This document shows positions 8,101 to 32,790 of a stretch of 64,000 nucleotides of DNA, in pieces. Position numbers and translations under genes: made by a program. The stretch spans positions 14,136,001-14,200,000 of the forward strand of contig CM114271.1 of the NCBI GenBank assembly GCA_050084515.1, in the 5' to 3' direction. Under the pieces are notes generated by a model. The model did no database searches, was not told the DNA's origin, and worked only from the letters and a program-made list of their open reading frames with translations. Position 1 is the stretch's first letter. Every line of letters starts with the position of its first letter. The stretch comes from Blasia pusilla. Lineage: Eukaryota.

Positions 8101-8559
8101 GGGAGTGGTGGCGGCGTCGTATGAGATTACGGACGAGATCACGGCGGTTGCGTTGGTGAGCCCCATGCCTACCGAGACGGTGGAAGCGGCTAGGGGCGAG
8201 ACCCGAGGAGATCTCACGCACGGGGGAGATCGGGAGAGACACCCTGGACTTCTTGGGATGTTTTGAAGGTGCGCAAGGAGATGATAGCCACGACATCGGC
8301 GTGGTTTGAACCGCACTGCGTGGAGGAGATCGAGTTTGCGGTTGGTGCGCAGGAGAGCGGCCAGTGTTGTTATTCGAGACGGGGTTGCACCATAGCAACC
8401 ACCGATACCCAGCGCCGGAGAGTCCTCTGTAGTCACGATGGAGACTTGGGAGCGGATATGGGCCCTAAGTTGTGAGGAGGAGAGCGGCGCCGAATACATC
8501 AATTCCTCGGGAGTTATAGGAGCGCTGCGTTTAGCATGGAGGATTTGGGTACGTTGAAG

Positions 8560-10966
8560 GGTCCGGGGATCCGCATTGAGTTGTCGAGTGATATGCCGAT
8601 CTTCCGGCGACCCTACAGGTGCTGATGATATGGAGAGGGCTCGATTGAGTAGGAGCCAAGACTTGGTCGGAGCAGGATTAGTGGAGATGTCGCATGGAGA
8701 GTATGCATCGCCACTATCATGCCCGCCAAGAAGGATGTGCATGGCAAGCTCGGCGGATAGGCGGATGTGTGGGGATTACCGACCTATCAATTGTGACGAA
8801 GTCCGATAGGTATGCCATGCCCACCCCGAGGAGATCTTTGATGCGATTGGTCACCCAAAGGTCTTGATTCATTGGATTTATGAAGTTGGATACCATCAGC
8901 TGCCTATCGATTGGAGGACAGGCAAAAGACGGCATTTTGGGGCATCGATCCTCACGGGAAGGATTGTTTGTACCAGTGGCGGTTCTTACCATTTGGGTTA
9001 AAGAACGCCCCGGCTGAGTTTCAGAGGGTCATGGATAGGATCTTGGCTGGTCTGGATTTTGCTAGGTGTTATATTGATGACATCGTAGTCTTTAGCGCCA
9101 CGGTTGAGGAGCATGAGCAACATCTAGAGGAGGTGTTTTGACGATTGCAATTACATGGGCTGAAGCTACATCCAGGCAAGTGCAAGTTCTTCTACGACCA
9201 GATTGAGTACTTGGGTCATACGATATACCGAGGGGGCCTTGGTGTTCAGCAGACGAAGGTAGAGGCTATCTCACGCATTCCACGCCCTACAGATGTGAGC
9301 CGTGTTTGCGCATTCATGGGATTGGTGAACTTCTATCGGTGATACGTCAAGGGATTGATTCGATTTGGCGGCTGACCTTGCTCACCAAGGTGGATCACGA
9401 GTGGCACTGGGGGGATGAGCAGGAGCGAGCATTTCGATTGCTCAGGGCGAGTTGCGTCCGCACACATCTTGAGGAGACCGATCAGGGGGCGTCCTTTCCA
9501 GTTGCACATAGATTGGAGCATATTGGGGCTTGGAACGGTGCTCACCCAGCATGATGATGAGGGTAGAGAGTTTGTGGTGGCTTACGCTAGCCGCTCGAAT
9601 AACGTTGCAGAGGCGGGCGGCTCGTATGAGGAGGGTGAGTGCTTGGTCGGTGTGGTCATCGCGCATTTTAGGTGTTACTTATTCGGCAACCCTTTACCAT
9701 CATCATCGATCATCAACCACTAAAGTGGTTGATGGAGTCCGGCTGAGCTTACGGGGGAAGCTTTGCGAGATGGGCTCTGTTGTTGCAGGAGTATGATTTT
9801 CAGGTGGTACATAGACCTGAAACGCTCAACCAGGATGCAGATGGGTTGAGTCGTAACCTATGCCCAAGTCAGCGAGATGCGATTGGAGCTCGATGGCATG
9901 GAGAGAGTGATGAGGAGTCGGTGCCAGGATGGCACGCGTCAGCCTATTTAGGCATGTTGGCTATGGAGAGCCAGAGTGTGGAGACTTCGATGGCGAGGTC
10001 TAGTGGAGAGTCTTTGGATCCCGAGGCCAGTGAGGACACGACAAGTGGCCGAGATATTCATGATGATGGAGTAGTCTTAGAGTACCTTCGTACTGGCAGC
10101 CTTGCAAGCACCATGGATGCTAGAGAGCGGGATCGGATCCTACAGCGGGCCAGACGGTTCCGTTGGGAGGGGACACATGTTTTGAGGGTTTGGGAGGAGG
10201 CAGAGTACGCGTAATGCCGCATCCTTTGCAGAGAGCACGACTAGTGCAGCATGCCCACGAGGAGTTGGGTCACTTTGGGGTGAAGCGGACGTATAGCTTG
10301 CTCCAGATTCAGTATTGGTGGCGAGGCATGCAGACTGACTAGCGTCTTTTTCACCGTACTTGCTACTTTATGGCCGAGAGCCAGATTTACCTACGGCCAT
10401 TCGTCGAGATGCTGGTGAGGTGCTGAACCTTGATGACCCAGATGTATGGGTGCGAGCATATTCTCAGAGGGCTGAGTTATTTCGGAGAGTGATGCCCATG
10501 GCGTTTGAGAACTTGGCGATTGCACAACATCAGGATACGTTGAGGTATGCGACTATTCGAGGTGGTGGTTATCGACCAACTATCCGAAGGTTTCATCAGG
10601 GAGATTATGTCTATTTGCAGCAGACGGGCACCGACGACGTTGGATGTGACTGCACGGCGTACTATCCTGAGAGTGCGTGACATTTTGCCATCGAGTCTTC
10701 TCTTGCTGGAGGGACGCGATGGTATGGTATGGAAGGACCATGTGCGTAATTGTGCGCCATGTCACCTTCCTAACATTGATGGTATTGTAGATCCGAGCTT
10801 AGAAGTAGTTCCTGCAGGCTTGCGTTGTATGTTGTGTGGTTCTGCCCGTGGTGCGGCCACGATGCTAGTCTGTGATGGGTGTTCGAGAGGATGGCATATG
10901 GCATGTTTGACGCCACCTCTCACTAGGGTTCCTCAAGGACGATGGATGTGTCCCAGATGTACATAG
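8560..10966 (+). pseudogene. RT-RNase H-integrase (core deleted)-PHD of Gypsy copy 1
   Basis: RMCGDYRPIN, KTAF, PFGLKNAPAEFQRVMD, YIDD, EYLGH, VVAYASRS, NQDADGLSR, HAHEELGHFG, PHD CMLC..LVCDGCSRGWHMACL..WMCPRC. Confidence 0.92.
10826..10960 (+). other. PHD finger (C4HC3) at the integrase C-terminus, copy 1
   Basis: CMLCGSARGAATMLVCDGCSRGWHMACLTPPLTRVPQGRWMCPRC has complete C4HC3 spacing. Confidence 0.93.
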
Positions 10967-11147
10967 AGAAGGTAGTTCTACATTCCGACTTGTGTCTATG
11001 ACATGGATGACAAGAAGGCGACTAACGATGGGGCCACATGAGCACCCCGCCTTCTTGCTCTTAGCGTCCGAGAGATGTATGTCATGGTAGGTAAGGATAG
11101 ATGGCTATCTGGAGTTAGAGGGACCTAACCACCAGCTAGGGGGGCGA

Positions 11148-11914
11148 TTGGAGATATTTTGGTTCTTCTTGTCTCGTTGTTTGGATACCATGAGTTAGCA
11201 TGGGATCATGCGTGTTTGTGTGTGTGTTCGGTGACAGCGATGTATGTTGTGTAGCGATGTGTATGCGCACGGCGGTATCCACGTCTTTTAGGATAGATCG
11301 GTGGGATCTAATAGAGCGCCTTCATGAGTAGTGGAGGACACGCCCAAAGATGGGTCGAGGTGACTGCTGAGGCCCTTGAAACCTGAGATAGCGGTTTCCC
11401 CTTCATGTGGCTCATTTGGAGCCATATTGAGAACTTACTATTTTAGGTAAGTTCCATTTTGAGTATATGATGGACTTACTATTTTTGGTAAGTGGCCCTT
11501 GACCTCCTACATCAGGTCAAGAGCCAAGGAGGTGACTTGGGAGAATAGGTTACCATGGAGAGAGCTTGGGAGAGGAGAGGGGTATACCTCAAGGAGAGAG
11601 AGCTTGAGAGCTCATTCTCTTTTTGTTGAACCTCTTGGCATGAGGCGGCGGAGCTATGGTACCTTGCCTTGTGAGTGTAACCCAAGCCTCTCATTAGGAG
11701 AGTGGGTTTGGTTTGACATGAGAGAGAGTGCACACCTTTGAGAGCTATGGTGTGAGATGGTGGAGAGAGAGATTGGATCTTACTTTATTGGAGATATTTT
11801 GGTTCTTCTTGTCTTGTTGTTTGGATGCCATGAGTTAGCATGGGATCATGCGTGTTTGTGTGTGTGTTCGGTGACAGCGATGTATGTTGTGTAGCGATGT
11901 GTATGCGGACGACA
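11148..11914 (+). repeat. B1-A2-B2 composite 3' terminus of Gypsy copy 1
   Basis: TTGGAGATATTTTGGTTC...GTATGCG occurs at 11148-11274 and 11788-11914, flanking a copy of A; preceded by PPT AGGGGGG (11138-11144). Confidence 0.93.
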
Positions 11915-12869
11915 TCTTATATGTGGATGACTTGATCATTACTGGAGATGATGTACAAGGGATACATGATCTTAAAGAAAGACTCTCCTCTTCATTCAAA
12001 ATGAAAGATCTTGGGAGTTTACACTTCTGCCTAGGACTTGAAGTAAAGCGAGGGCCGAAAATGACCTTCTTGACTCAAGAAAGGCATATAGCTATCTTGC
12101 TTCAAACTTTTGGCCTAGAGGACTGCAAATCAACGCCCACTCCGACGAGTACAAAGAGACTTACTTATAATGATCAAGAGGAGAAGGTGGACTTGAACGA
12201 GTACCAAAAATTGGTGGGCTCACTTATCTATATCACCAACTCCCGACCAGATATTGCATATGCAGTAAGCCAAATCAGCCAACATATGGCTGATCCCTGC
12301 AAGTCTCACCTCATTGCACCAAAGAGGGTGGCAAGGTATCTTAAGGGTACAAACACATTTGGGCTTGCCTACAATAGAGGCATCCAACAAGCTCCGATAA
12401 TCTTGGGATTCTCAGATGCTGATTATGCAGGTTGTCCAATAACTCGCAAATCAACTTTAGGATATTTCTTCTCCTTTGGAAGTGCGGCTGTGAGCTTCTC
12501 ATCAAAGAAGTAAGCCTCAATTTCTCTATCTTCCACGGAGGCAGAATACCGTGGATTGACATATGCCACAACGAAGCCATATGGCTTAGAGGACTATTGG
12601 CTAAAATTCGGTTTACCCAATCTAATCCTACTGTAATCTTGGGAGATAACATTAGTTCTATTTATTTGTCCAGAAATCCAATCTTCCATTCACGAACCAA
12701 GCGTATCGAAGTGCAGCATCACTTCATTCGAGGAAAGGTACTGAGTGGGGACATCAATGTTGTGTGGTGTTCGGGAGACAAACAGGTTGCTGCCATCTTC
12801 ACCAAAGGCCTTCCTACTGCTAAGTTTGAAAGATTTAGATCACTTCTTGGTGTTTTAGATTCTGTGTAA
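11915..12869 (+). pseudogene. Copia pol 3' part: RT C-terminal half and RNase H
   Basis: Removing 2186-11914 and one TCTT restores gtg atc tta tat gtg gat gac (VILYVDD). Continues MKDLG, YQKLVGSLIY, SRPDIAYAV, FSDADYAG, IFTKGLP. Confidence 0.93.
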
Positions 12870-15361: not shown

Positions 15362-16080
15362 CACTAAAACAAATTGCATATTATATGACTATAATAAATG
15401 ACTAGGTTGAGTCATTGTTCACGGTAAATGACTCACGATGACTCATAACCATTAGAGTCATATAAACCAAGTCATATACAGGATATGACTCTCACTACCA
15501 CATTGGTAAATGATTGAAGTCATTAGCTACTCAGTCATTGATATATGACTAAGATGTCAAGTGTGAGAGACACGTCAGAATGCCATGTTGGCGTATGACA
15601 TGGCAAGTAGAAATGATGTGGCAAAGTGAGCATCAAATGAGATATTGCCACGTGTCAAACTTGGGATTGCTAGATTGTTTAGGCTCAATGAGACGATAAC
15701 ATATGTAATGATATGAACAAATAACAGAGTGACACGTGATTGAAATGACTGAGCCATATGTCTTGACTGAATCACACATACCAAGCACGTAATTTCCTAC
15801 GACTATATGAGTCATAAAATATGACTAGATTGGTTCTCAATTACGACTATTTTGGTCACTCTATGTGTGTTACGGTATTTCATAACTAACTGAGACATTT
15901 TATTGATGGTTTGAGTCATTTATCTCATGTCATTCATGATTGTACGAGTCATATTTCCTAACCATTTGAGTCATTGCGTTAAATGTATGAGTTATTATCA
16001 TGACTTGATCAGTCACTTTTACGACTAAATGATATTTTGGCCGTCTAAGTTATTTGATATACTGCATTAGTCATTCACAC
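15362..16080. repeat. CACTA left TIR and subterminal repeat array
   Basis: Dozens of direct and inverted TGACT(C)/(G)AGTCA motifs immediately after CACTA. Confidence 0.85.
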
Positions 16081-18164
16081 AATCCTATTAGTTGTGGTTT
16101 ATTACTAGATCATGTATTGTTCACAATTTTCCATTGCTCCTCTTGGTGATTGTTAAATGGAGGAGTTACTTTAGTAAGTAAGTGGTGGTCATCTAAGTAA
16201 CATAATCCTCTTAACATAATTAGAGACTCTCTCAGATTCAGCCAGGAGTAATGTGTGAAAACAAGTAGCGTAGACAATGGTAAGGATAGACAAAATCTGA
16301 ATCTTAAGGGCTAGAAGAGGGACATATATCAACCAAGTAATTCTAGGGTACATGCCAATTACAATGAATACTGAAAACTACAAATACATCATAATCAAAC
16401 CATTCTCTAATTAATGAAACCCAAAAATAGATTATTCATTCTATAGAAGAATTAAAGTATTTACATCTCAACAAGCTGCAAGAAGGAACCAAGAGCATAT
16501 GGAAACCAAACTACAAACGAATGATCTGATGGAATCATTGTGAAAGTTTAAACATTTCTGAAATCACCAAATCTAGATATCCTAATGAACTAGCTTTTTA
16601 AGATTCAAATGTCAAGGAAAAAAGTGAAAGCCTGACTATTTTACCCTCTACTTCTTGCTGTTTAGTACTTTCGGATCACACTCTGACTCACTACCCACAC
16701 TTGCAACCATCTTGGTGGTTGCCTTCATCTTCTTCTTGATCTTTGGTGAAGCTTGTATGTCCATTATTACTTCACCTGTAGAACATTCAACTTCAAAAAG
16801 ATTAATATATGGAACACTATTATCAATTGAGAAAATTCTCACTTGCACCACTCATAAACACGGAAGTTTATTGAATTAGTTGTTGCTATCATACATGCAG
16901 TTTGCTCCCATTCTTGAGATGTACTTCAACATTCCTAGCTCTCAGAAAGTGCCAATAGAATAATAAAAACATGGATTAGAAAGAAAATAGAGTTGAGATA
17001 TGCACCCTGGGATATTGTAGTAGTCACAAATTTAGCTTTGTTACTACTGTTTATAAGGTGAGTATGATCAATCTTCTCTTTACCTACACAAGAGCAACAG
17101 AAAAATGCCAATAAATTTTGGTATGGTCTTAGTGAGGTGAGTGAGTAATCACTCACCATATCCAACTTGAAATTTTCATTGCTGAATATGGAATAGAGGT
17201 ATGGAGAAATTGGAAAATGTAGGTACAAAATGTGGGAGATTCTTGAGTGTTACCATTGATCATTACTCTTGAAGAGCTCTTGTTCAACACCTGGCTCACC
17301 GGATCAGCATTGTGGAATTTCAGATTTACATTGCACATCATTGTATAGTTATGGTACACCTACATTAAAAATTTACAGACAACTTGCAAAGAGAATTTAA
17401 GTGATTAAACCTACAAGAAGATATGTCAAAGATTTTCACCTATCAAATTAGTCCTATCTTCAAAGCCAACATTCATGTGAGGCTTTGTCCTCCTTTTCTT
17501 AGGGGACTTTTTAGCCTGAACAAGGTTCTCAACATTGTCTGTAAGCTCATGCGATTCTCGATGACGCCTTGCACAAGCCATACATAGAAGCAATTAGATC
17601 ATGATATGGAAATGAGAAAAAGTGATCATAATTTAGAGTGCCTTAATGAAACCTAACTGGACTTATATAAGAAAAAGAACTTACTTTTCAGGGTTGATAG
17701 CTTTCTACAAGTGCATAATCAATTGACACATTGGATGTTCTTTCTTTTCCACTTTGAGCTAATTTTAAGACCATGCGCAAAAGTACACTCAACTTCTCCT
17801 CAAGAAGTTGGTGACTCGCCTGAAGATCATTCCATTTATTTTGTTGCTCCCTCTGGCCATTTTCAATTTGGGATATCATATCACGTAGACCTTCATCCAA
17901 TCTAGTCTCCACCTCATTCATGTGGGAAATGAGATATGATTCGACTCCTTGTCAAGCATAACAGATAAATAATACAAGCTGTCAATGATTTCTATGACAA
18001 ATTTCCTTCATTTTCCTTTCTATCCATGACCACTACACCAACCAAATTTAAAAACTTTTGTGTAAGTTACCCGTGAAGCCCTACTAAAATCTGTACTAGT
18101 AGGGTGTGATGATGGAATCTCTTCTCTTGCTGTTCCATGAGCAGAAATCTCTCTTTTTGGAACC

Positions 18165-18641
18165 TGTCACATCTGAGTAGCCGATAGGTCGAGATCTATC
18201 GTGGATAGGGCGTAGGAGCCAGCGGACTATCTTGAGTGTAACTTTGTCCCCCGGTGTCGGATGAGGTTGAGGATAGGTCCATTGTGTCAGGAACGTCGTT
18301 TCTGACAACTTTCATGTTGAGGTCTTTTACAGTCAGGTGACTTGTTGACTAGGTCACCGCCCCAGTACTGTGTGCGCAAGAGTTACCAAGGAAGGGCTAT
18401 TTTTAGGGGAAGAGCGTTTTGGCTCTTCCCAACCCTATATAAGAGAGGAAGATGGCTTTCCTAAGCCATCTTTCTCATGTTGGGCCGTTGAAGCACCTCC
18501 CTTGTATGTGTGTGAGCTAGGACTAGGGTGCTAGCGTCCGGATTCCGTGATAGCACAGGGTGGACGAGGCTCGATATGTCGATGTAGATTGAAGAGTGGA
18601 GTTTTAGGCCGAGTGTGCCATTTTTACTACTCTTTATTTTT
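18165..18641 (+). repeat. Terminal repeat A1 of copy 2, containing TATATAA (18436-18442)
   Basis: Highly similar to 27440-27920; differences are mostly transitions. Confidence 0.95.
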
Positions 18642-18655
18642 ACATGAGAAAGATG
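18642..18655 (+). promoter_or_regulatory. Putative self-priming primer-binding site (copy 2)
   Basis: ACATGAGAAAGATG immediately 3' of A1 is the exact reverse complement of CATCTTTCTCATGT (18467-18480), which starts ~31 nt after the start of the TATA box. Confidence 0.75.
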
Positions 18656-19827
18656 TCAGAGGGCTGGTGGGAATTTGTTGTTTGCATGTAGGCAAGCGAG
18701 TCGCCTTGGTCGGGAGCCCCTGAAGACGTGTGTGTGACGTTTTGTGTGTCATTTTTTTGTTCGGAAGGCCGTGGGCGGAAGCGCTGTCTGTTTTTCTCAG
18801 ATTTTGCTGGTGCGGATTGATGGGGACAGCAGCAGGGTGTAGCGCAGGTTGTATCGGCAGGAGTAACGTCGTCTTATAACGCGTGGAATGTCGGGAGTAC
18901 CCAGGGAGAAGAGTTAGAGCTTGCAGCCGCCAGGGGGCTGTCAAGTAAAGGGCGGGTAGGTTAGGTCGCGAAGGCTAGAAGCGCATGCAGGCGACAGCGC
19001 AGACGAGCAGACGGCAGACGGCTAACAAAGTAGGGCGCGGACAGCAGAGCCCCCTCTCTCCGTGGTAAACGTGGTAGACGGACCATAGTCGGTCGGGCTG
19101 TTGTAGCATACATGGTTGGCAGGACGGACGAGGTTAGTCCGGCAAATGTGAGTTGAGATTTGCCGGACATGCTTGGGAGCCGACCAGGGTGAGTCACGTT
19201 ACATGCCGCGCGTGGGGATTGATAGAGGGGTTTGCGCGACATGATGTTTTGGGGCGCGACAAGGCGTTGCGAGAGTTGACGATGGAGGGGCAGTGTGCAT
19301 GATGCCGACGGGTGGTCCGCATCTGTTGACGGGAGGATCGACGTGTTGGTCGAGGGGAGTGTTGTGTTGCGGAGATTTTCATCTCATGAGGAGGAGTGCA
19401 TGTTGACAGTGCAGCAGGTTGGAGGGCGTGATCAGGTTACCCATTCGAGTCCCTTTTCCCGCACTTGTCGTGTGTGATTGAGAGTGCTGGTGCTAGATGG
19501 GTGCAGTGATGGTGACGAGTGTAGATTCTTTTCATGTGTAGCATGTTGGTGGATATACGGCGGTTGTCGAGTAGGGGTCGCGTGTATGACCCGAGAGAGT
19601 GTCGCTAGGTTAGGTGATTCAGTTGGGAGGCTCATGGTGAGCCCGAGTGTTGAGCGTGCGTGAGGCCGGGTATGTCATCACGGGATTGATGTTAGCATAG
19701 GTGAGCTAGTGAGGCGTGTGGGAGACTCTCGGTGAGTCTAAGTGCTTGAGCTGGTGAGACAGGGTTTGTCATCATTGCGTTCTTCCAGGGTTCGGAAGAA
19801 CGGGGTAGTACGAGCAGTAGTAGTGGT

Positions 19828-22260
19828 GTGACACGGAGTGGAGTGAGATACCAAGGGGTTACCAGTGAGGAGCTCCCTCAACATCCATCCGTGACTGGAT
19901 CGTCATCACTGGACACTGGGTCTGGTGACAAGATCACCGACAGAGACAAAAGTACTTGGCAGGAGATGGACGACATGGGCCATCGGGGCATGCGTCGTTT
20001 CTCGGGTGCAGTGGGCACCATCGACTTAGATGATTTCATCCAGGAGTTCGACACATGGTGCGACTTCCAGGAGATACGGACCCCGACACGGTTCAACCCT
20101 TTCATGGCATGGAAGGGGTTGTTCCTGTACTTGGAGGGTCCTCCGATGGATGACTTTATGGAGTTTCGATCACTTTATTCAGTAGAGATCGATGCTTGGA
20201 GGATGTATTGGGCTCCAGGGTATGTGTCCACTAGTGGTCGCGAGGCATATGATGGGATTGTGAGAGGAGAGAGACCCACACCATCAGCCCGGAGACTAGA
20301 TGGAGAGGAGGGCAGTGAGACAGGCGATGTGGCAGAGACTTCTAGTGGTAGAGGGCCACCCAGCTTCAGCCCCACAGTGGAGTTCTTCCGAAAGTTGGGG
20401 AAGAGCTACCAGGGCGTACGCACCGACAAGCTGAAGAGTCTACACGATTTTCAGCGACGATCGAGTGAGAGTCTGAGAGAGGCATTCACACGCATGAGGA
20501 GGCTGATCATTGCTACGTTTGGAGTGACTGAGGCGCAGTCGACCCAAAGATTGGTACTGGGTTCGGACCGAGAACTACGGAGGAGAGTCCGAGATGCGGT
20601 GCTGATTCACACAGCGAAGCCCACATTGAAGGTGGTCTTTGAGTTGTCTGAGCATATTGAGCTCAACATGAGTGAGGAGCATGTAGTGACCGCTGGATTT
20701 TCTCGAGAGTCGACGGGTCCATGAGCGACGGTGACCCCACAGGTGCCACAGCGGGCATCAGTACCACGGGAGCGGGCCAATATGCCTAGAGAGCGGGGGG
20801 GTACCGTGTGAGCCTATGAGGCAACAACCCGCACCTACATATGTTGCCCAAAGACGGACCGATGTGGTCTTGTTGGGCGTGTGGAGGGGCCCATAGGCGA
20901 GAGAGCGCCCACGGCATGGGAGAGGACCACCAGCGCCCACGATTGCTCAGAAGCCACAGAGGATGGCCCCACCCACACACCGGTGTGACCATTGCCCACG
21001 AGATATGGTCACACTAGGGATAGATGTTTTGACCTTCGCCGAGGGGCACGCGTCGAGGTAGGCCGAGGGCCTGGGGCGTGCGTCTGGAGGAGGTCGGGAG
21101 TTCTTCTTGGGCGTGGTGGTAGAGGACCACCACCAGCCAGGAGGAGATGGAGCAGAGCACGAGCCGGCACTTCTCTCACGATCGATCACTTGAGTAGAGG
21201 ATTGCTTTGCCATGACGATGATGCGGCTTAGGAAGGCACGAGTGCGGCGGCTAGTGTGACTCGATTTCTACCTCTTACCCGACCCGGGTGAGGATCTCTC
21301 CAGTATGGGATTCATGTGTAGTGCAGCCCAGGTTGAGGCAGATGCAGTGGAGACTCGTGGTGCTGCGAGAGGCACCGAGCCAATCGAGAGGTGGAGTTGA
21401 GATTGACCCACCAGAGGGGACCGATGGGCGGCAGGCCAGGGTTCCACAGTCGTTCACATTGTCGGAGGCACTACACACACCATCGATGGTGCCTAGACGA
21501 CCAGCGGTGCCTATAGTTCAGGCACCTACGTCGACGTCACGAGGAGTTGGAGTGACAACTCCTATGCCGGCTCGAGTGGAGTCAGTGTTGACCATAGTGT
21601 TGGAGGTGGCCACTAGAGTGAGTCAGACTCCGCTATTTTCCGCCATAGAGTTGGCGACGTTGGGAGTTGGACTAGCTGAGGTGTTCTGGTTGGCCGCCAT
21701 GTTGTGTGAGTGTGGAGAGATGAGTGCTTCTTGTTCAGAGGTAGTTGAGGAGGTGGTGGACTTGCCCTCAGAGCCGGTGCTGGGGACGTTCCCCACAGAG
21801 TCATGGCATGCGGCGGCGGCGAAGTTGGTAGATATGCCAGCTTGACCGGCCATAGAGCGAGCAGGGGTGACACCTGGAGTAGTGTTACTGGATAACCGAG
21901 GTGGAGTATTTCGCTTGTTTAGTCCAACGGAGACGGTATACCACCCCCAGCGCGTCCTACTTGATTCAGGAGCGCAACCCTTGACGTTAGGGAAGGCGGC
22001 GTGTTTAGCGTTGGGGTTACGGAAGGCCGACATTGAGCCTTGTCCCTTCCAGATACAGACCTCGATTGGGGGCGTATCACCCACTCAGTATATGACTCAA
22101 CAAGAGATTGTTGTCAGAGTCCAGCCAGAGCATGCGACAAATAGTGCTATGGTGCGCATACGTGCGATTACGACACCACCGAGTCGCATGCGGCGTGTTG
22201 GTGGGGAGAGTCTGATGTTATATTCCTAGATTCATCCTTGACTTCTAGGAGGAGACCGTT
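19828..22260 (+). pseudogene. gag and protease of copy 2
   Basis: 298-aa gag ORF (FSGAVGTIDLDDFIQEFDTWC, FQRRSSESLREAFTR), CWAC..H..C and CDHC..YGHTRDRC knuckles, protease RVLLDSGAQP (~21955). Confidence 0.88.
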
Positions 22261-22680
22261 GCTTATCGGCCAAGATGGCGGTCGGTGTGCCGGATGAGTC
22301 GATTACGGTCGCGATTTGCGGGACGAGGTGGTCGATCACGAGGCGAGTCTGTGACCACGTAGGCAGCTTTCACAGGTAATGTTAGCTGACCAGGAGAGTT
22401 GTTGGAGGGGAACCCACATGTGGAGGATGTCCCAGCAGCGGATAGTCCCACGGAGAGACAGGCCATGGCGGGTGTCTCTTCCCATGTTGGCGAGGCCTCT
22501 TCACCATTGTGGGGTACGACTCGGGAGCTATAGAGGAGTGTCGACGACCTCGTGAGGCAATCGTGGAGTCATGTTTTTATCCCAGAGCAGCGAGAGTCAC
22601 GTGGCGCTCGGGCTCTTGGAGTGGAGACGATGACCCCACTAGATACCACACCTGTTGTGTGGTAGTGCCCAGAGGAGGGT

Positions 22681-23615
22681 GTTAGATCTCTCCGGAGGGA
22701 TTAGCACCGGATTGGCTGCACTATTGCCGGTGGGCATACGGGTGCATCAGTACCTTTATGTGGAGAGAGATGAGACCGCACGGCGAATATCATTACGTCA
22801 CGTGGCGAGATTGGTCTAGAGGTATCCTGAGTTGTTGCCGGTATCTGCAGTACGGGGATATCAGCATACGCTACCCGCCGATATCTCTTTGGTGGGGGTG
22901 CAGGATCTGGATAGAGTTGGCACCATTCATTTGGTGATTGCTGGATGGCCATGTTAGGGTCATTCATCAGCTGACTGAGGATTTGGATTGCAGGATCCGA
23001 GGTTAGGGATGTTTTGGGAGATGCTGCGAGTATTACGACACTTGAAGGAGAGCCAGATATGTTCTCCAACGTACATTTTGGAGAACGTGCCATTGTTAGG
23101 AGACACTCGTGCACGTGTGATGACGAGTGTACATCAGGTGAGGTCCAGGTTGGGACCTGCAATGTTGTTAGATGCAGCGAGAGTTGGGTCACGTGCCTAT
23201 CGTCCACGACTGTGGTGGGAACGAACCTGATACCATCAGAGGTACTGAGTCGAGCATACGGTGGAGTCCAAAGAGCACCACATCTCACCGTGGATGCTAT
23301 TTTGGGCTCAGAGCATCGATCTCAGGTGGTGACACGGGATGATAGACCACCGTTGGCCATGGCCAATAGGGTGGGGGAGTTGAGGGCAGCCTTACCTATG
23401 TTGGTGAGCTTCCCAACATCCCATGCCTTTCGTCAAGGAGGGCTAGGCATGATTTGGGATGAGGTGACCGGAGCATTGGAGGAACCTACAGCAGATGAGC
23501 GCGAGCGCGCCATGGGGTTCACTATGGTACTACGGCGGTGCCGAGGGGATGACCGAGGCATCACGGAGACAGTGTTGGGGCGGCGATGGACCTCAACTGT
23601 CTCACATGGATAGTC
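22681..23615 (+). pseudogene. C5-cytosine DNA methyltransferase domain inside Gypsy pol (copy 2)
   Basis: LDLSGGISTGLAALL (I), QYLYVERD (II), DISLVG (III), IHLVIAGWPC(stop)GHS (IV; TAG at 22955 where CAG is expected), GLQDPRLGMFWEMLRVL (V), YILENVP (VI), LDAARVGSRAYRPRLWW (VIII), EEPTADERERAMGF (IX), LG.AMD (X). Confidence 0.92.
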
Positions 23616-24049
23616 ACCTAGGTATGGCTGAGCGGCATACGGATGCAAGTGTCATCCATGCCGTCACGCCCACGAAGTTGGACCATTGCCTCTGAGTGAG
23701 TGCAGACACGCATTGGTGGGGCGAGACGAGGAGAGATAGGCACCCATGGACTTCTGGGACGTCGTTCGAGCGAGAGAGTGCGAAGGCGGCTAGAGTAGCA
23801 CATGTTCATTTTTCGGATATGGAGCATGGTGTAGGAGGGAGGGGAGTGGAGTGGTCATTTATGAGGTGGCTAGGGTTGCTACATAGCAACCAAAGCCGGA
23901 GGTTGCGTCCTCTCCGAGTGAGGTCACGATGGAGACTTGGGAGCCTGTGATAGGTCTCAAGTTGATAGGAGGAGAGCGACGGCGAGTTCATAGTTTTTAC
24001 GAGAGGGCATGTCGGTTGTTTTGCCTTGATATGAGAGACTTGGATCGTT

Positions 24050-27000
24050 GAAGGGTCCCGGATACGGATTGAGTTGGCTAGTGATACGCCGATCTTTCGT
24101 CGACCCTCTGGTATTCTGATATGGAGCGAGCCTTGATTGAGCGGGAGTCGGGACTTGTTGGAGGCGGGACTTATGGAGTTATCACATGGGGAGTATGCAT
24201 CGCCCACAGTCATGCCGGCAAAGAAGGATATGTATGGCAATTGGACGGATAGGCGGATGTGTGGTGATTACCGTCCTATCAACCGACAGACGAGGTCAGA
24301 TCGGTATGCCATGCCTACTCCTGAGGAGATCTTTGATGCGGTAGGGCATGCAAAGATCTTCAGTACTTTAGATCTCCATGTTGGCTATCATCAGCTTCCT
24401 ATCAGGTTGGAGGACAGGGAGAAGACAGCATTTTGGGGGATAGATTGGTTCGGGAGAGATTACTTGTATCAGTGGCGGTTCTTACCATTTGGGTTGGAGA
24501 ACGCGCCTGCAGAGTTTCAGAGAGTGATAGATAGGATTCTGGCTGGCTTGGATTTTGTACGATGTTACATAGATGATATTCTTATCTTCAGTTCCACGGT
24601 TGAGGAGCATGAGCGACACTTGGAGGAGGTACCTTGAAATTGGTGGTTGGTGGGATATTTATGTTACCATCAAAAAACGTTTTCTTGATCTTGAAAATTA
24701 CCTCCTTGTTTGACATGTGGCAATTGGACAGATAAAAATGTTTTCTATCTTACGGACATCAAGAAAATGTCTCCCCCTTTTGCGCCATTTTGTGTGTAAC
24801 ATGATTAATCTCTTCACTCTGCGCATGGCACGGGTATGGTAAGTGGGAGGTGTTTCGGCAATTGCAGTTACATGGACTGAAGTTACATCCAGGCAAGTGC
24901 AGATTCTTTCAGGAGCAGATTGAGTACTTGGGACACACCATATACCCGAGTGGGTTAGGCGCTCAGCAGACAAAGGTAGAGGCTATTGCATAGATTCCAC
25001 GCCCTACAGATGTGAGTCGAGTCCGAGCATTTCTTGGACTGGCAAACTTCTATCGACGGTATGTCAAGGGTTTTAGTGCGATCGCAAAGTCTTTGACCTT
25101 GTTGACGAGACTTGATCAGTTTTGGTTGTGGGGAGATGATCAAGAGCGAGCATTTCAGGAGCTCAAGGACAAGTTGACGACCTCACCCATTTTACAGAGA
25201 CCGGTTAGAGGTCGCCCATTCCACTTACATACGGATTTGAGCATGTTGGGTCTAGGAGCAGTGCTTACTCAGAGGGATGACGAGGAGAGGGAGTTCGTTG
25301 TGGCTTACGCGAGCCGATCGAACAACATTGCAGAGGCAAAGTACAGCTCCTACGAGGGAGAGTGCTTGGCTGCAGTGTGGGCCGTGGGGCGTGGCACATT
25401 TGAGGTGCTATTTATTCGGCAACCCTTTCACACTTATCACTGATCATCAGCCGTTGAGGTGGTTGATGGAGTCCGACAAGCTTACGGGAAAGCTTGCCAG
25501 GTGGGCTCTATTACTACAGGAGTATGAGTTTGAGGTGGTTCATAGGCCAGGTCGGCTGAACCAGGATGCGGATGGGTTGAGTCGTAACCCATGTCTGAGT
25601 AGAGAGACGACACAGGAGCTCAATGGCACGGAGAGAGTGATGAGGAGATGGTGCCCGGTTGGCATGCATCTGCCTATCTTTGTTGGTTGACTATGGCGGA
25701 GTCACCCACGGTGATGACTCGGTGGTGGGATTGGATGATGAGTCTTTGGATCCGAAGGTTAGTGAGGAGGCGGCAGGTGGTCGTGATATCCATGACGACG
25801 TGGAGGTTGTGGAGTTCTTTTGACCTTGGCGTCATTGCGAGAGTACAAAGTGAGTGCTAGGGAGCGGATCGGATCCTCTGAGAGCCAAGAGGTTTAGGTG
25901 GGAGGGGACTCACATTTTGCGGGTATGGGGAGATGGTAGGATACGAGTGGTACCTCATCCTTCCCAGCGAGGGCGTGTAGTGCGACATGCCCATGAGGAG
26001 TTGGGACATTTCAAGTAAAGCGTTTACGACTTACTCGATTCAGTATTGGTGGCGCGGCATGCATCCGATCAGCGATTTGTGGCGGATGTATGGTATGTGA
26101 CAGAGAGTGCGAGCATCCTTCAATGCTCCCACTCTCAGATTACATCCTTTTCCGATTATGGGTTTAGGTTATCGGTGGAGTTTAGACTTTGCGGGACCTT
26201 TGCCATTGTGATGCGTCATCATAGGTGCGTGTTGGTCATGGTGGAGCATTTCTCCAAGTGGATAGAGTTGGTGGCACTACCAGACAAGGCGAGCGAGGGA
26301 ACAGCTTATGCGTTTCTAGATCGTGTGCTTAGTCATTTTGGTGCACCGGCGGAGGTGTTGACTGACCAGGGTACCGAGTTCAGGGGAGAGTTTCAGGCCT
26401 TATGTGATCAGGCACTGATAGATCATCGCACCATGTCCAGAGATCATCCTGAGGCGGATGGGTTGGCGGAGAGAGTGGTACAGACGGTGAAGAGAGGATT
26501 GCGCAAGTATGGCTTGCAGCGGGGACAGTTGAGGGAGTGGGACCTACAGTTGCCATGGTTGGCTATGGGTTATCGCTTTAGTCGGCAGGCATCCTTGGCA
26601 TCATTTTCACCGTAATTTTTGCTCTTTGGGAGAGAGCTAGATTTACCTGCAGCCATTCGACGTTACATGGCGGAGGTGTTAGATCTTGATGATCCAGATG
26701 TGTGGGTACAAGCATGTTCTCAGAGGGTAGAAGTTTTTCGTAGAGTTATGCCTATGGCCTTTGAGAACTTAGCTATTGCCAAAGATAGAGATACATTGAG
26801 GTCGCGACCATTCGTGGAGGAGGTTATCGTCCGAGGATTAGGAGGTTTCATCCTGGAGATTACGTGTATTTACAAAGCAGCGGCACCCATGACGCTAGAT
26901 TTCATCAGGCAGGCGCACGGTCCCCCACGTGTGCGCGAGGTATTACCGACCGGAGTCCTCATGTTGGAGGGATGGGATGGTATGGTTTGGAAGGATCATG

Positions 27001-27220
27001 TGCGCAATTGTGCGCTATGTCATCTTCCGAACGTAGATGGGATGGTGGATCCGAGCTTGGCAGTGGTACCTACAGGCTTGAGGTGTATGTTGTGCGGATC
27101 TGCGAGGGGTGCAGCCACCATGTTGGTATGTGATGGTTGTTCTCGAGGGTGGCATATGTCATGTCTGACCCCCCTCTTGATGTGGTTCCCACCGGATGAT
27201 GGATGTGTCCGAGATGTGTA
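24050..27220 (+). pseudogene. RT-RNase H-DDE integrase-PHD of copy 2
   Basis: RMCGDYRPIN, FSTLDL..GYHQ, PFGL.NAPAEFQR, YIDD (24566-24577), FLGLANFYRR, LHTD, TDHQPL, integrase core VEHFSKW..LTDQGTEF..HPEADGLAER, PHD from 27084. Confidence 0.95.
24631..24845. other. 215-bp AT-richer insertion within the RT of copy 2, flanked by a GGAGGT direct repeat
   Basis: Copy 1 reads GAGGAGGTGTTT contiguously; copy 2 has GGAGGT at 24625-24630 and 24846-24851 around extra sequence. Confidence 0.8.
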
Positions 27221-27300
27221 TAGGGTAGTAGGTCATGTCAGAGAGATGTGATATTTTCTATCTAGAGTTGGGTGGATCCAACTGCCAGCTAGGGGGGCGT

Positions 27301-28058
27301 TTGTGTGATCTCCATGTATATGTATGAGTTGATTTTTGTACATGTGTGGATCGACCCGTGTGTGGGGAAGATCGGTGTTGTGTGGTGTAGATGTGACCAG
27401 CGATGTATGTTGTGTAGCGATATGTATGCGCATGACAGCTGTCACATCTGAGTAGCCGATAGGTCGAGATCTATCGTGGATAGGGCGTAGGAGCCAGCGG
27501 ACTATCTTGAGTGTAACTTTGTCCCACGGTGTCGGATGAGGTTGAGGATAGGTCCATTATGTCAGGAACGTCGTTTCTGACAACTTTCATGTTGAGGTCT
27601 TTTACAGTCAGGTGACTTGTTGACCAGGTCACCCGCCCCTGGTAACCTGTGCGCACAGGTTACCAAGGGAAGGGCTATTTTTAGGGGAAGAGCCTTTTGT
27701 GCTCTTCCCAACCCTATATAAGAGAGGAAGATGGCTTTCATAAGCCATCTTTCTCATGTTGGGCCGTTGGAGCACCTCCCTTGTATGTGTGTGAGCTAGG
27801 ACTAGGGTGCTAGCATCCGGATTCCTTGATAGCATAGGCTGGACGAGGCTCAATATGCCGATGTAGATTGAGGAGTGGAGTTTTAGGCCGGGTGTGCCGT
27901 TTTTACTACTCTTTATTTTTGTTGTGTGATCTCCATGTATATGTATGAGTTGATTTTTGTACATGTGTGGATCGACCCGTGTGTGGGGAAGATCGGTGTT
28001 GTGTGGTGTAGATGTGACCAGCGATGTATGTTGTGTAGCGATATGTATGCGCACAACA
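27301..28058 (+). repeat. B1-GC-A2-B2 composite 3' terminus of copy 2
   Basis: 137-bp B at 27301-27437 and 27922-28058; palindrome TGACAGCTGTCA (27433-27444) at the B1/A2 junction. Confidence 0.95.
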
Positions 28059-31000
28059 AACCCCCTAAAATACATCCCACATTGTAAGTGTCATTATGCA
28101 AACATTTGAAATCAGAAACAAGTACAAGTTTAGTATATAAGCTTCTGGGAATTCCTAAATTGATAGAGTAGATACCAAAAGAAGAACCTATCAATTTGAA
28201 GCTATATTTTTACAATTGAAAGTTAAAGCTCGTTCTAAGGGCTTACCGAAAAACCGTCTATGCCTGATCGGTCGTTGTTGTTCAAAGTCTGAACATGTGA
28301 CCGAGATTTTGTCATTTGCTCGGCCTTAAATTTCCCTGATTCTGACATCCAATAGTCGACCATTCGTTCCCACTATAGGAGAAAGAAAGAGAGAGAGGAT
28401 TGAAGAATCTTTGAGTTTTCAAGAAAGAGTTGCACTGAGATGGTCAAGACAGAAGTTTGAAGCTTCCCCGATAACGTAAAATTTCAGGAGGATATACTTC
28501 CAAGTGTTTCGCATTCTATGCGGCTCATGAACTCAGTGGTCAATGCTTATCCCTCAAGGCGACAGTGGAAATAATGTAGCTCACATTCAAAGACCGATTG
28601 CCTAATGGAGTGATTCGTGATGATGCTGATCTGAATGGAGAGTACAAGTAGAAGTGACTGAATCCGTAAAAGTGAAATTGACCTAAACTCCGCGAGCTTA
28701 GAAATAGCAAACATGAAAAACGTATCAAGTAACTAGTCTTTCAGGCGAACGGGAGGGAAAACTTGCAAGAATGTAAGCAAATAAATGTGACCAGCACCAG
28801 TGAACCCACTGCTCACACTAAATAATTATCTTGGCCTAGACAAGTACTCACATACAAAGCGTATTTCCTATTGTTGTCCCCCAGAAATCTGAGTTAGACG
28901 GACTAATTGTGATTTGACGAGCGGCAAACAATCAATGCCAACTGATTTCTGGCCTTAACGTGAACCTATTCCTCACCAAATAACACAGCTAAGAAAGAAA
29001 TATTCAAGTCACAGTTGGAGTGTTGCATACTCGAGGATGCCCGAGAGGATTAAGAAAATGATACTCTTATTCTATACTTGGATTTTTCTGGGGCTTGATA
29101 ACTTTTGATTCGTCGTCCATAAAAAGAACCGTGCTCATGGAATATATCATCCAAAAACACTTTTTTGAGAATGCCCACCAATGGAGATAGTCCATTTCAT
29201 GCTTTCCTCCACAGAACCGCCCCTCATTTCTTTCCATTCTGTGCTTCTCATCTTCAAACGCGCGCGAATAAAGGCTTGTACAGGTCTTCCGGGCAACTGC
29301 AAGAATAGAATCTAATCAGCTTATCCTAGTTGGATGAAGAATTCGGTGCATTTTGTACACAGGGCGAAGAAGCTCCGTATTAGGGCCCATGATTTGACGA
29401 CATCTCTGAAATTAAACACATCATAATCATACGTCGTCGATTGCTTAAGCGCCATGAGACGGTGGAAGTTACTTGGTTTTAAGATAAAAGCTATCTACCC
29501 ATTGTGGAAAAGGTCCGTGCTGGAAAAAGCTCACTTTGATGCTCATAATCAGTTCAATCCTTACAAATCGGTTTAGTTTGATTAGTTGGAGTCGAGTGGG
29601 CCAGTTCGTTGATCAACTTTTGTCACTAGGTCTTGGAAACCTACGTATCTCAACGTGGAAATCTAGTTTCATCGTGAATAGTGATATACAATCTGCAAAC
29701 CACTTCAATAGTTTAGGGGAAGACCAACTTAGTCATTCACAGATATATTCAAGCTCACAGCGCGGCGGTCAGCTGGGATTTTGCAAGGTGATGGACTATC
29801 GTGATATCTGGAACTCTAGATACTCGTTAACAAGCTGACCAGAAGCGTAGGTTTGGGGATCCAGAGCTTCTACTAACAGGAATGTTTGCACAATTCAACT
29901 ACGTGAGACTCATTCGGAAAACTGAACAGATATCTAATGATAGTACCTAAGCGACATCATCTAGATCTTTGCGTGGAAGATCAACGAGTCCGTCACGACT
30001 ATCAAGTTATAGACAGATTTCATCTCCACCTTTAAGGTCAGATTTTTGATAGATCCTGACTGGTTTTGTTACGACCACATGACTAATCAGCTTTCCCGAA
30101 ATGTAAGTTTGGGGATCAAAAAAAGAACCCCACGATGCAATTAGTGTCGATCATCCACTTACACAAAAATCTTGTGATCTTCTAGAAGTCCATATGCTAA
30201 AAACACTATTGGGAAAAAGACTCTCGGTACCATATTGACACTAGAGAATCCCTTGCCCAACGCGACGCAGCCCTCTAGGGACCGATATCGTAGAATCTTG
30301 CCCCTATAATCACCTAGCATTTTCATGTAGCATCTCAACTCGCGCGCAAGAAGTAACTCAACTCTGAGAGCGCACATTGAAAGAGTCCGCAATTGACCTC
30401 CAAGTTGGTGGAGCATCTACAAGAAATGTAGTCGCATGTGATTGCGCATATCATGTAGGAAATGGGCAAAAACATGGTTATGGTGCGTCCGGAAGGGTCC
30501 TATGTTCGTGGGTGTTGGGTTAAAATACTAGAGCGGCAGCGTCCGAGGACTTGGTAGAGAGACAGAGAGAGAGAGATTGTGTCCAGACCGATTTGGAGCT
30601 CGACCTATGGAGCGGCTTCCAAAATTTTCAATGTCAGTTTCATAACAGCCCAATTCAAATTGCACCTCACATGTGCGCGAGTCTTCCTCTCCCGCGCGCT
30701 TTTGCCTCTCTTCGCGCTCTTGCTCAACCTCGATGCTCTTGCCTCTCTTCGCGTTCTTGCCCAACGTCGACGCTCTTGCCTCTCTTCGACGTCTCTTAGA
30801 TCGTTCACACTCTCTCTCTCTCTCTCTCCCGCTTTAGTGCATCTCCAGCTCCTTGAGATCCCTCTCGTGTCCATGCATCAAAACCCTAACAAAAGAAATA
30901 AGAAAATAAAATACAAGAAAAAGAGAGCACTTGAACAAGATAACAGCGTAGGTCTTCAACCCAGTACCTCGCTTGCGGCCATGGAGACCCGGAATCAAAA

Positions 31001-31481
31001 CTGAATTGGGGCGCTTGCAAATTAAAACTTTAAGGTTCCAACTTTCTTTTTAAACCTAGTGACTAGCGATCACCGTAAGAGCGTAAAAGGGGGGTCATTT
31101 GTTTAGTTCTAATTTCAAAGTTATTACTTTTTATAGATTTTGGATTTTTAAAAAAATTTATTGGTAAGATATTTGAGATCTATCTTATGTAGCATCACTA
31201 TAATTATTGAGTTTTATTCTCCATGCCCAAAACAATTAATTAATGCTCATAATTTTCCCTTTTTTTAATGAAATTTCAAAATTCAAATCAATATTTATAT
31301 ATTAATCTTCTCCAAATTAATTTTGTTCCATAATTATGTGTGAATATGACTTGCAAATGACCAAATCATTTGTGTTACTATTTGAGTAATTGATTTATGA
31401 CTATTTCGGTTTTCGATGTCATATTAAATGATTGGACCCATTGAGTCATACTTTAAGTCATTAATTTATCACTATTTCTGT

Positions 31482-32790
31482 TTCTTGATTCTACTATTTG
31501 TGGCGAATGTATGTGCTTGCCTTTATGGACTCATTGCGACCCCTTTGTCTTGCTCTTCATGTTGGTTCTCCCTTGAGGCCGTCCACCATTGTTGATCGTA
31601 TTGGTGCAATTTCTGTATTGCGGAGCGTTGCGAGAATGCCTTCCAATGTAATCAATTGAGCGAACGTCATTGATTCATTCACTTGCATGCTAATCTTCCA
31701 GAATCGAGGTAGAGACGTCTGTCAAGAAAATGTGATAGCTATATATATAGAATAAATATTTCAATATATAGGGGTTGAGGATGATCAATGGTAGAGGCTG
31801 AATCAACAACTATGTGTGTCATCAATGTGTCCTCTAAAGTATTTCTTGATTCTACTATTTGTGGTGAATGTATGTGCTTGCCTTTATGGACTTATTGCGA
31901 GCCCTTTGTCTTGCTCTTCATGTTGGTTCCCCCTTGAGGCCGTCCACCGTTGTAGATCGTATTGGCGCAATTTCTTTGATAGGGAGTGATGCCAGAATGC
32001 CTTCTGATCTAATGAGCTGAGTGAACTCCATTGATTCATTGGCCAACATCCTAATCTTCCAAAGTTGGGGTAGAGATGTGTGTCAAGAAAATGTGACAGT
32101 TGTATATATAGAATATATATTCAATATGTAGGGGTTGAGGATTATCAACCCACATGCATGAGTTTCTAATAGCAATTTGCTAATTCTGTCATTTTTTCAG
32201 GGCAAGTGATTGAAATGCATACACTCGATAGTGTGAGTAGTGGTTTGATATTGTTATATTGCCTAAAAGCATTGAGTTTAGTTCATATTTTTGTACTTGT
32301 GGAGTTGTTGGCTATTTTTAAATGCCTCAATGGTCGAGGCTGAATGAAGAGTTCTGTGTGTCATCAATGTGCCCTCTAAATCATTTCTTGATTCTACTAT
32401 TTATGGTGAATCTATGTGCTTGCCTTTTTGGACTCACTGCAACCCCTTTGTCTTGCTTTCTATGTTGGTTCCCCCCTTGGGACGTTCGGTATTCCAAATC
32501 ATAATGGAACAATTTATCTTTTGTCTAGCGATGCTAGAATGTTTGCCGATGGATTGCCTTCATTGAGCAGCATGTTGAAATTGGAGAATCCGGTTGAAGA
32601 CTTTTATCTAAGAATGTGACAATTATAGAAAGTTGAAGAGAATGTATAGTTAAATATCTAGGTGTTGAGACCCTCAACCCCTCTATTGCGAGGGGTTGAG
32701 ATTCATCAACCCTCGTGCATGAGTTTGTAATATAATGACTTGCTTGGTTGTCATTTATGGAGCAAAAGTTAGTGAAATGCATGTACTTAT
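31482..32790 (+). repeat. Three diverged tandem copies of a ~350-450-bp unit
   Basis: TTCTTGATTCTACTATTT(G/A)TGG..AAT.TATGTGCTTGCCTTT at ~31482, ~31843 and ~32385, each followed by GGGGTTGAG..T.ATCAA. Confidence 0.9.

Follow-up and report, generated by a model that had tools for sequence, protein, structure and literature searches.

The window analyzed here is a 64-kb stretch (64,000 nucleotides) of the liverwort Blasia pusilla (assembly GCA_050084515.1, contig CM114271.1, positions 14,136,001 to 14,200,000 of the forward strand), in which positions are counted from the first base. It harbors three copies of one retrotransposon family, all on the + strand, at 2189-11907 (copy 1), 18165-28053 (copy 2), and 43961-49623 (copy 3), and our subject is the C5-cytosine DNA methyltransferase (DNMT) domain that this family carries in its Pol polyprotein. 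A sequence-only reading of the window had described a Gypsy family with such a domain between protease (PR) and reverse transcriptase (RT). By tblastn with liverwort relatives, we recovered the parts in the order gag, PR, methyltransferase, RT, RNase H, integrase (IN), and PHD finger, so that the domain indeed lies between PR and RT. The base composition of the copies is 50 to 57% G+C, against 35 to 41% in their flanks, and the internal regions of copies 1 and 2 are 74 to 79% identical by BLAST.

Architecture of the three copies

Self-BLAST, repeats, and domains delimit copy 2 (18165-28053) as a defective element with the layout A1-gag-PR-DNMT-RT-RNase H-IN-PHD-PPT-B1-A2-B2, in which A and B are the repeats at its ends and PPT is a polypurine-tract-like sequence. 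Repeat A1, which starts with TGTCAC, occupies positions 18165-18641 and is 94.8% identical to A2 over 483 aligned positions. The gag region (19966-21036) was located by tblastn with residues 1 to 350 of P0004, an intact relative from Marchantia (47% identity). Residues 459 to 709 of the same protein matched the aspartic protease region (21399-22175; 48%), which contains the motif VLLDSGAQ and is also marked by an open reading frame. RT and RNase H follow at 23996-25606, as indicated by Pfam matches to RVT_1 (E 1.6e-18) and RT_RNaseH_2 (E 3.2e-26) and by tblastn. The stretch 25731-27191, which aligned by tblastn with residues 915 to 1405 of another relative, P0035, holds the integrase, with its rve core at about 26223-26444 (E 2.4e-10), and a C-terminal PHD finger at about 27084-27173. 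The PHD match of copy 2 (E 1e-4, 22.7 bits) falls under its cutoff of 24; that of copy 1 has an E value of 4.2e-10. The tract CCAGCTAGGGGGGCG (27285-27299) lies 2 bases upstream of B1 and is identical in all three copies, where it starts at 27285, 11132, and 49484. The element closes with B1 (27302-27432; 99% identical to B2), a seven-base spacer, A2 (27440-27920), and, two bases further on, B2 (27923-28053), ending in ...GCGCA.

Copy 1 (2189-11907) is inserted in a Ty1/Copia reverse transcriptase gene, which it splits into 1339-2103 and 11875-12513 (RVT_2, E 3.4e-45). Its repeats are A1 (2189-2698), B1 (11148-11267), A2 (11280-11787), and B2 (11788-11907), with the PPT at 11132-11146; A1 and A2 are 97.1% identical over 514 positions, and B1 and B2 are 98% identical. 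It lacks the approximately 535 bases that hold the integrase core in copy 2 (10332/10342 in copy 1 versus 26063/26598 in copy 2). Most of Pol is gone from copy 3 (43961-49623), which consists of A1 (43961-44451), gag, PR, an internal deletion, the PPT (49484-49498), and one B repeat; this copy yielded no A2-B2.

When copies 1 and 2 were scanned against Pfam in three forward frames with stops read as X, copy 2 matched RVT_1, RT_RNaseH, DNA_methylase, and rve, and copy 1 matched RVT_1, RT_RNaseH, Integrase_H2C2, and PHD. The RT of the window is nearest to that of Ty3 (E 4.4e-31). By its Ty3-like RT, its order PR-RT-RNase H-IN, and a predicted DDE integrase (rve and Integrase_H2C2), the element is assigned to the Ty3/Gypsy type, as the sequence-only reading had proposed.

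A 221-base segment in the RT of copy 2 (24625-24845) is absent from copy 1 and from the majority of the family copies. The joint from 24624 to 24846 occurs in 987 DNA reads and in some RNA reads. Because DNA reads skip it too, the segment is an insertion private to copy 2 rather than an intron, even though its ends are GT..AG. In addition, single-base indels separate most family reads from copy 2 at many places (12 listed and 158 more), indicating that much of the damage in copy 2 is private to this copy.

The methyltransferase domain

The domain of copy 2 extends over 22618-23618 on the + strand, as delimited by a PF00145 match, tblastn, and direct reading of motifs I to X, the names in general use for the conserved motifs of C5-methyltransferases. 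In frame 2 of the segment 22502-23800, we read VLDLSGGISTG (motif I), IAGWPC followed by a stop (motif IV), ILENV (motif VI), and SRAYRPR (motif VIII); motif IX, EPTADERERAMGF, lies in frame 1, and motif X, GAAMDLN, in frame 3. A comparison with the profile PF00145 (DNA_methylase) had been suggested as a check. Positions 22502-23299, translated with stops as X, matched this profile with an E value of 1.7e-6 and 28.1 bits, above the cutoff of 22, which the relatives P0004, P0008, P0001, and P0019 also passed. P0004 aligned by tblastn with copy 2 at 22679-23218 (72%), 23221-23520 (59%), and 23574-23618 (80%), in three frames. The damage to the domain thus consists of three in-frame stops in its first 180 codons and of frame shifts at about 23218/23221 and between 23520 and 23574. 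Used as a protein query, the copy 2 fragment matched 37 proteins at E <= 0.001 (best 8.4e-78), and the domain is therefore not a chance resemblance.

In copy 1, tblastn located the domain at 7127-8072 (+ strand), where motif I (MLDLFGGISIG) begins at 7193. This domain has decayed further than that of copy 2: its matches are distributed over two or more frames and contain 6 stops each. The scan of the whole forward frames of copy 1 gave no PF00145 match at E <= 0.01, because the domain is split between frames. Copy 3 retains a remnant of motif I of 13 codons (RMLDLFGGINI; 49318-49356, + strand), and everything between this motif and the 3' untranslated region is deleted. Two claims of the sequence-only reading, namely, that the motifs occur in canonical order in copies 1 and 2 and that copy 3 keeps motif I, therefore hold on direct inspection. 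Indeed, the PC and ENV signatures and motifs I, IV, VI, VIII, IX, and X follow each other in canonical order, collinear with DNMT3A.

As to the METHYLTRANSFERASE subfamily, all 25 matches of the copy 2 fragment to solved structures at E <= 0.01 were to DNMT3A, DNMT3B, or DNMT3C (best 2.8e-4). The same held for 25 of the 27 matches of P0004 (best 1.7e-8), the others being M.HaeIII (1e-3) and the plant DRM structure 4onj (2.6e-3). The alignment of P0004 with DNMT3A is collinear across motifs I to VIII and then across IX and X, whereas residues 224 to 349 of the 357 residues of 4onj, that is, its C-terminal part, pair with the N-terminal motifs of the element domain, as predicted by the permuted order of DRM. 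DRM enzymes are DNMT3-related plant C5 methyltransferases and in this respect resemble the element domain, but their motif order is circularly permuted and that of the element domain is not, which is what had been claimed. The catalytic domains of animal DNMT3A, DNMT3B, and DNMT3C are thus the best and nearly the sole structure matches, with motifs I to X collinear, although the E values are modest and the element domain lies inside a retroelement polyprotein and has no PWWP or ADD partner. Indeed, Pfam scans of copies 1 and 2 and of the relatives found neither a PWWP nor an ADD domain beside the catalytic domain. In the Protein Atlas, 30 of the 30 nearest named clusters of the intact P0004 domain carry PF00145; the top three shown comprise one from Streptophyta and two from phages, confirming the family, though not the subfamily. 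From the ranking against solved structures, we conclude that the domain probably belongs to the DNMT3 subfamily.

Selection, copy number, and expression

The DNMT domain occupies the same position of Pol in copies 1 and 2, and its remnant stands there in copy 3. The three copies differ from each other by 20 to 38%, and copies 1 and 2 by about 38% in the DNMT region. The sequence-only reading had also called for a comparison of nonsynonymous and synonymous change (dN/dS). Between copies 2 and 1, this ratio was 0.25 in the frame of the domain (268 codons), against 0.95 and 1.28 in out-of-frame controls; the values are rough, synonymous change being near saturation, but the contrast with the controls is still clear. 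The corresponding values were 0.23 for PR and 0.15 for each of two RT/RNase H stretches.

We then considered the abundance of the domain in the genome. Reads from a whole-genome run that bears the same species label were mapped at an identity of at least 80% on positions 16000-30000, and depth was normalized on the left flank only, the right flank being poorly covered; the sequenced individual differs from the assembly at fixed flank sites. Depth was 12.4, 15.0, 9.6, and 10.7 in the four left-flank bins and 1310, 1178, 902, 944, 1375, and 994 (mean, 1117) in the six gag-PR bins. The three methyltransferase bins had depths of 1110, 1161, and 877. Since these bin depths match, against about 12 in the flank, the DNMT domain is as abundant as gag-PR, at approximately 95 copy-equivalents. 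From RT to integrase, depth ranged from 1093 to 2512, the higher values probably stemming from more distant elements that still pass the 80% limit. Sorted by identity to copy 2, the 116,515 DNA reads comprised 701 at >=99%, 14,921 at 95-99%, 39,093 at 90-95%, and 61,800 at <90%. The 14,921 reads in the second class indicate that the genome contains close relatives of copy 2 and that the family has spread recently.

Three RNA runs with the same species label gave element reads of nearly one orientation only, with the first mate on the - strand, so that the element RNA would be sense under the usual stranded library type. RNA depth was 0 in each of the four left-flank bins, 0 to 17 over gag-PR-DNMT (4 to 9 in the methyltransferase bins), and 32 to 115 over RT-IN. 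Most RNA reads were <90% alike to copy 2, and only 18 to 29 per run were >=99% alike, indicating that the RNA stems for the most part from other members of the family or from related elements and not from copy 2.

Just downstream of copy 2, at 28142-28608, RNA of the opposite orientation (first mate on the + strand) was seen in all three runs at a depth of 21 to 24, suggesting that this otherwise silent flank is transcribed from the other strand.

Overall, the DNMT domain has long belonged to the family and has been maintained by purifying selection. That it was inherited and did not result from a one-off capture, as had been argued from the sequence, is borne out by a read depth equal to that of gag-PR, by the dN/dS of 0.25, and by 30 relatives with the same order of parts, which are described below.

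Relatives in bryophytes and algae

The relatives comprise the 37 proteins matching the copy 2 fragment and 120 listed of 152 proteins matching the P0035 domain, 156 in all. Among these 156 listed proteins, gag or PR lies upstream of the domain in 30 (with RT upstream in 0 of the 30), RT/RNase H lies upstream in 100, the domain is followed by integrase with nothing else in 18, and it stands alone in 8. Named hosts of the PR-DNMT type are Marchantia polymorpha, Calypogeia fissa, and Sphagnum, and the copy 2 fragment is 72 to 73% identical to proteins from Calypogeia and Marchantia.

In P0035, a protein from an ENA contig, the homologous domain is located between RNase H and integrase, and a PHD finger follows the integrase. 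The domains of P0004 and P0035 are 35% identical over 336 residues (E 1e-45), including the stretch between motifs VIII and IX. Named algal relatives are from Haematococcus lacustris, Chlamydomonas eustigma, Chromochloris zofingiensis, Monoraphidium neglectum, and Cymbomonas, in addition to many metagenome contigs. These green-algal elements with Gypsy backbone, DNMT, and PHD after the integrase, for which we came across no published name, resemble the window family in having a domain that is homologous over its full length, target-recognition part included. They differ in the place of the domain, which is between RNase H and integrase there and between protease and RT here, and in that most algal copies lack the catalytic motifs when simple patterns are applied. 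With these patterns, PC[QN] was present in 15/17 and EN[VGA] in 17/17 of the bryophyte-type proteins with a match of at least 280 residues, against 37/100 and 41/100, respectively, of the algal RNase H-DNMT-IN type. Judged by these motifs, the domain may often be a pseudo-enzyme in many algal elements.

A tree of 74 rows was computed with IQ-TREE from 17 PR-DNMT proteins (match of at least 280 residues), 36 of the 100 RNase H-DNMT proteins (every third plus five named or reference proteins), 15 DNMT-IN proteins, 5 unclassified proteins, and the window fragment; the 19 proteins in which the match was below 280 residues were excluded. The 22 PR-DNMT rows, made up of 17 proteins, 4 unclassified fragments, and the window, are set off from the remaining 52 by one branch with a Shimodaira-Hasegawa-like approximate likelihood ratio test (SH-aLRT) value of 100. 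The window domain falls among the bryophytes, nearest to P0001 from Calypogeia, P0002, and P0006; ten M. polymorpha proteins form a well-supported clade that does not include it. Of the DNMT tree that the sequence-only reading had proposed, the part on element-borne domains sets the PR-DNMT type apart. Holding element-borne domains only and no outgroup, the tree fits one capture followed by relocation as well as two captures of related genes.

Mp_8g17980 (P0012) and other polyprotein fragments bear the name DNA (cytosine-5-)-methyltransferase in public databases (UniRef name). Liverwort gene models with the DNMT domain are present unnoticed in public annotation, and fragments named in this way could lead to an overestimate of the number of host DNMT genes in bryophytes.

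Termini of the element

The ends of copies 1 and 2 are split direct repeats of the form A-coding-B-A-B and not a pair of long terminal repeats (LTRs) on either side of the coding region. The terminal repeats had been described as clearly diverged between copies 1 and 2. This is correct in that their A repeats gave no mutual match by BLAST, but the ends are not the plain LTRs that the description implied. The Copia reading frame resumes directly after B2 of copy 1, and B2 is therefore part of the inserted unit. This unit starts with TG (TGTCAC) and ends with CA (GCGCA), as do integrase substrates. No target-site duplication was evident at the flanks of copies 1 to 3, and an alignment of the three copies downstream of A1 gave no convincing tRNA-complementary primer-binding site.

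With the tract located before B, textbook reverse transcription would yield a B+A LTR at both ends. The integrated A...B-A-B form is a circular permutation of this B+A LTR form and is unusual for a DDE-integrase element. The single B of copy 3 could derive from recombination between B1 and B2. For one algal relative, a metagenome scan with P0056 as the query returned a DNA locus of 6714 bases (28% identity) that ends at the contig end, and no direct repeats were found in it.

Two further observations concern the noncoding parts of the family. The sequence CAACAAA stands directly after repeat B in both copy 2 (28035-28065) and copy 3 (49609-49635), the flanks being otherwise unrelated; it may belong to the end of the element or reflect a preferred target. 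In copy 2, DNA depth drops to about 82 at 18802-19268, between A1 and gag, against about 1000 in the adjoining bins. This segment, for which copy 3 gave no alignment, is a hypervariable leader of the family.

Interpretation and alternative explanations

Domains shaped like this one have been reported from other retrotransposons. In Klebsormidium nitens, de Mendoza et al. (2018, PMC5890265) describe KnitGypsy-Dnmt3, a non-rearranged Dnmt3 in a Gypsy Pol, which has a Ka/Ks of <0.2 in the DNMT domain, a low genomic copy number, silent copies methylated in the CHH and CHG contexts, and DIRS-like A-coding-B-A-B termini (legend of Fig. 4c). The same authors give the repeats of SymbioDIRS-Dnmt3 of Symbiodinium as "A-coding region-B-A-B" (legend of Fig. 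1e), report that SymbioDIRS-Dnmt3 domains methylate CG sites de novo in yeast, and propose that cDNA is methylated upon reverse transcription (PMC5890265). A 2026 preprint (10.64898/2026.05.21.726589) refers to "streptophytes (Gypsy-DNMT3)", citing the work of de Mendoza, and a 2025 article (PMC12344493) mentions DNMT3 members embedded in streptophyte and dinoflagellate retrotransposons. Our literature search, which was thin on subscription journals and did not include supplements, found no description of a DNMT-bearing Gypsy element in liverworts or mosses.

The window family shares with KnitGypsy-Dnmt3 a non-permuted Dnmt3-like domain in a Gypsy Pol, DIRS-like repeats combined with Gypsy domains, a streptophyte host, and purifying selection on the DNMT (Ka/Ks of <0.2 there, 0.25 here). 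It differs from it in that the host is a liverwort and not an alga, in having about 95 copies instead of few, and in its relatives in Marchantia, Calypogeia, and Sphagnum. With SymbioDIRS-Dnmt3, it has in common the Dnmt3-like domain in Pol and the A-coding-B-A-B repeats, but SymbioDIRS-Dnmt3 encodes a tyrosine recombinase and a DIRS-type RT, unlike the DDE integrase and Ty3-type RT found here. We thus regard the window family as a land-plant member of the published Gypsy-DNMT3 kind and not as a new kind of system. Most probably, the window holds three defective copies of a liverwort Ty3/Gypsy family with a selected DNMT3-like domain, the counterpart of KnitGypsy-Dnmt3 with A-coding-B-A-B termini. 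Taken with its algal relatives, the family points to an old clade that extends across green plants.

Several points weigh against this reading or limit it. All three window copies are broken by stops, frame changes, or deletion, so that none has an open frame from which the enzyme could be made, and among the 156 listed relatives, whose gene models are partial or spliced predictions, none has a convincing complete frame from gag to PHD. The assignment to DNMT3 follows from the ranking against solved structures. The homology with KnitGypsy-Dnmt3 is argued from architecture and not from an alignment, and there was no Klebsormidium-named match among the 37 fragment matches or the 120 listed of 152. 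RNA over RT-IN is in about tenfold excess, and much of it may come from distant elements, perhaps without the domain. Furthermore, we know of no activity shown for any Gypsy-borne DNMT.

This last point bears on the alternative that the domain is under selection in another capacity than that of a DNA methyltransferase, be it as a structural or DNA/RNA-binding module of Pol or as an RNA methyltransferase, which we hold to be improbable without dismissing it. Such a capacity would fit the reduced catalytic motifs of the algal RNase H-IN type (37/100 and 41/100) and the finding of the 2018 study that the Klebsormidium domain gave no methylation in yeast, a result from which its authors draw no firm conclusion (PMC5890265). 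The same study reports that human DNMT3B, a real enzyme, likewise failed in yeast, where the SymbioDIRS-Dnmt3 domains did methylate CG de novo (PMC5890265), and in the bryophyte type, the motifs are kept in 15/17 and 17/17 of the proteins. It would be conceivable, in a window in which nesting is common (copy 1 lies inside a Copia element and copy 2 carries the private 221-base RT insert), that the domain is foreign to the family and stems from a fragment of a host DNMT3 gene or from an insertion, nested or chimeric, in a few copies. This is hardly credible given the shared position and orientation of the domain in three copies differing by 20 to 38%, its read depth equal to that of gag-PR, the same fusion order in 30 relatives from several species, and selection acting in its own frame. 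Finally, copies 1 and 2 have split direct repeats and no clear target-site duplication, which is reminiscent of tyrosine-recombinase retrotransposons of the DIRS, PAT, or Ngaro type, but that these elements belong there and not to Gypsy is very unlikely: scans of copies 1 and 2 in all three forward frames gave no tyrosine-recombinase family at E <= 0.01 and matched rve and Integrase_H2C2 instead, the RT is nearest to Ty3, and the ends of the unit are TG...CA.

Returning to a liverwort Gypsy family with a selected DNMT3-like domain, we can only tentatively propose a function, to which we give slightly less than an even chance: the Pol-borne enzyme would methylate the new cDNA or insertions of its own element. 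In intact copies, the enzyme would be made as part of Pol, would travel with the reverse-transcription or preintegration complex, and would act at CG sites on the new cDNA or the fresh insertion, so that the new copy would arrive already marked as host heterochromatin. This mechanism is proposed by analogy, because the SymbioDIRS-Dnmt3 domains methylate CG de novo in yeast. Chromoviruses are Gypsy elements with a chromodomain after the integrase, and this chromodomain has a role in targeting, which is also cited in the introduction of the 2026 preprint. The window family resembles them in having a chromatin-reader module at the C terminus of the integrase, which is a PHD finger here and a chromodomain there. 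In a similar way, the PHD finger might read a histone tail and thereby choose the insertion site.

A more far-reaching version seems doubtful to us, though worth stating. Bryophytes, Marchantia included, would host a still-active Gypsy lineage with a competent DNMT3 that marks its own copies, the domain would have moved once within Pol across the green-plant clade (between the RNase H-IN and PR-RT positions), and replication would proceed via a permuted or circular intermediate. Such an intermediate would explain why the PPT lies before B while in the integrated copy A comes first and B last, and it would, if true, constitute a replication and integration route new for integrase-bearing LTR elements.

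The family embodies a paradox, that of retrotransposons carrying an enzyme normally used to silence them. To our knowledge, only the dinoflagellate DIRS domains have been shown to be active among element-borne DNMTs, and their hosts are hard to work with. In Marchantia polymorpha, transformation, gene editing, and methylome maps are routine. With about 95 copies, transcripts at the family level, and close relatives in M. polymorpha, the function of the domain comes within experimental reach. Known so far from one charophyte alga, Gypsy-DNMT3 is extended by our findings to liverworts and mosses, and the findings also expose permuted termini in a DDE-integrase element and a homologous domain at two places of Pol across green plants.

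Other features of the window

A spliced gene for a 2-oxoglutarate/Fe(II) dioxygenase (DIOX_N, 2OG-FeII_Oxy) is located at about 55184-57722. A search with an exon of this gene returned seven proteins at E <= 1e-10, with identities of 70% to MpDOXC2 of Marchantia polymorpha, 68% to proteins of two Riccia species, 68% to Marchantia paleacea, 58% to Calypogeia fissa, and 40 to 42% to two angiosperms. The sequence-only reading had placed the DNA in a land-plant lineage, and the 58 to 70% identity to liverwort proteins, against 40 to 42% to those of angiosperms, is in good agreement with this. Judged by these identities and by the place of the DNMT fragment in the domain tree, the host is in all probability a liverwort distinct from the species listed.

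Following copy 3, a run of long + strand open frames (257, 125, 156, 273, and 206 residues) extends over 49592-53581. Four of these five frames were scanned against Pfam and gave no match; the region may be an unclassified transposon. Two repeat regions are unrelated to the element, namely, an array of tandem-like repeats of about 50 to 110 bases at 41018-41570 and three 280-base direct repeats at 31481-32663.

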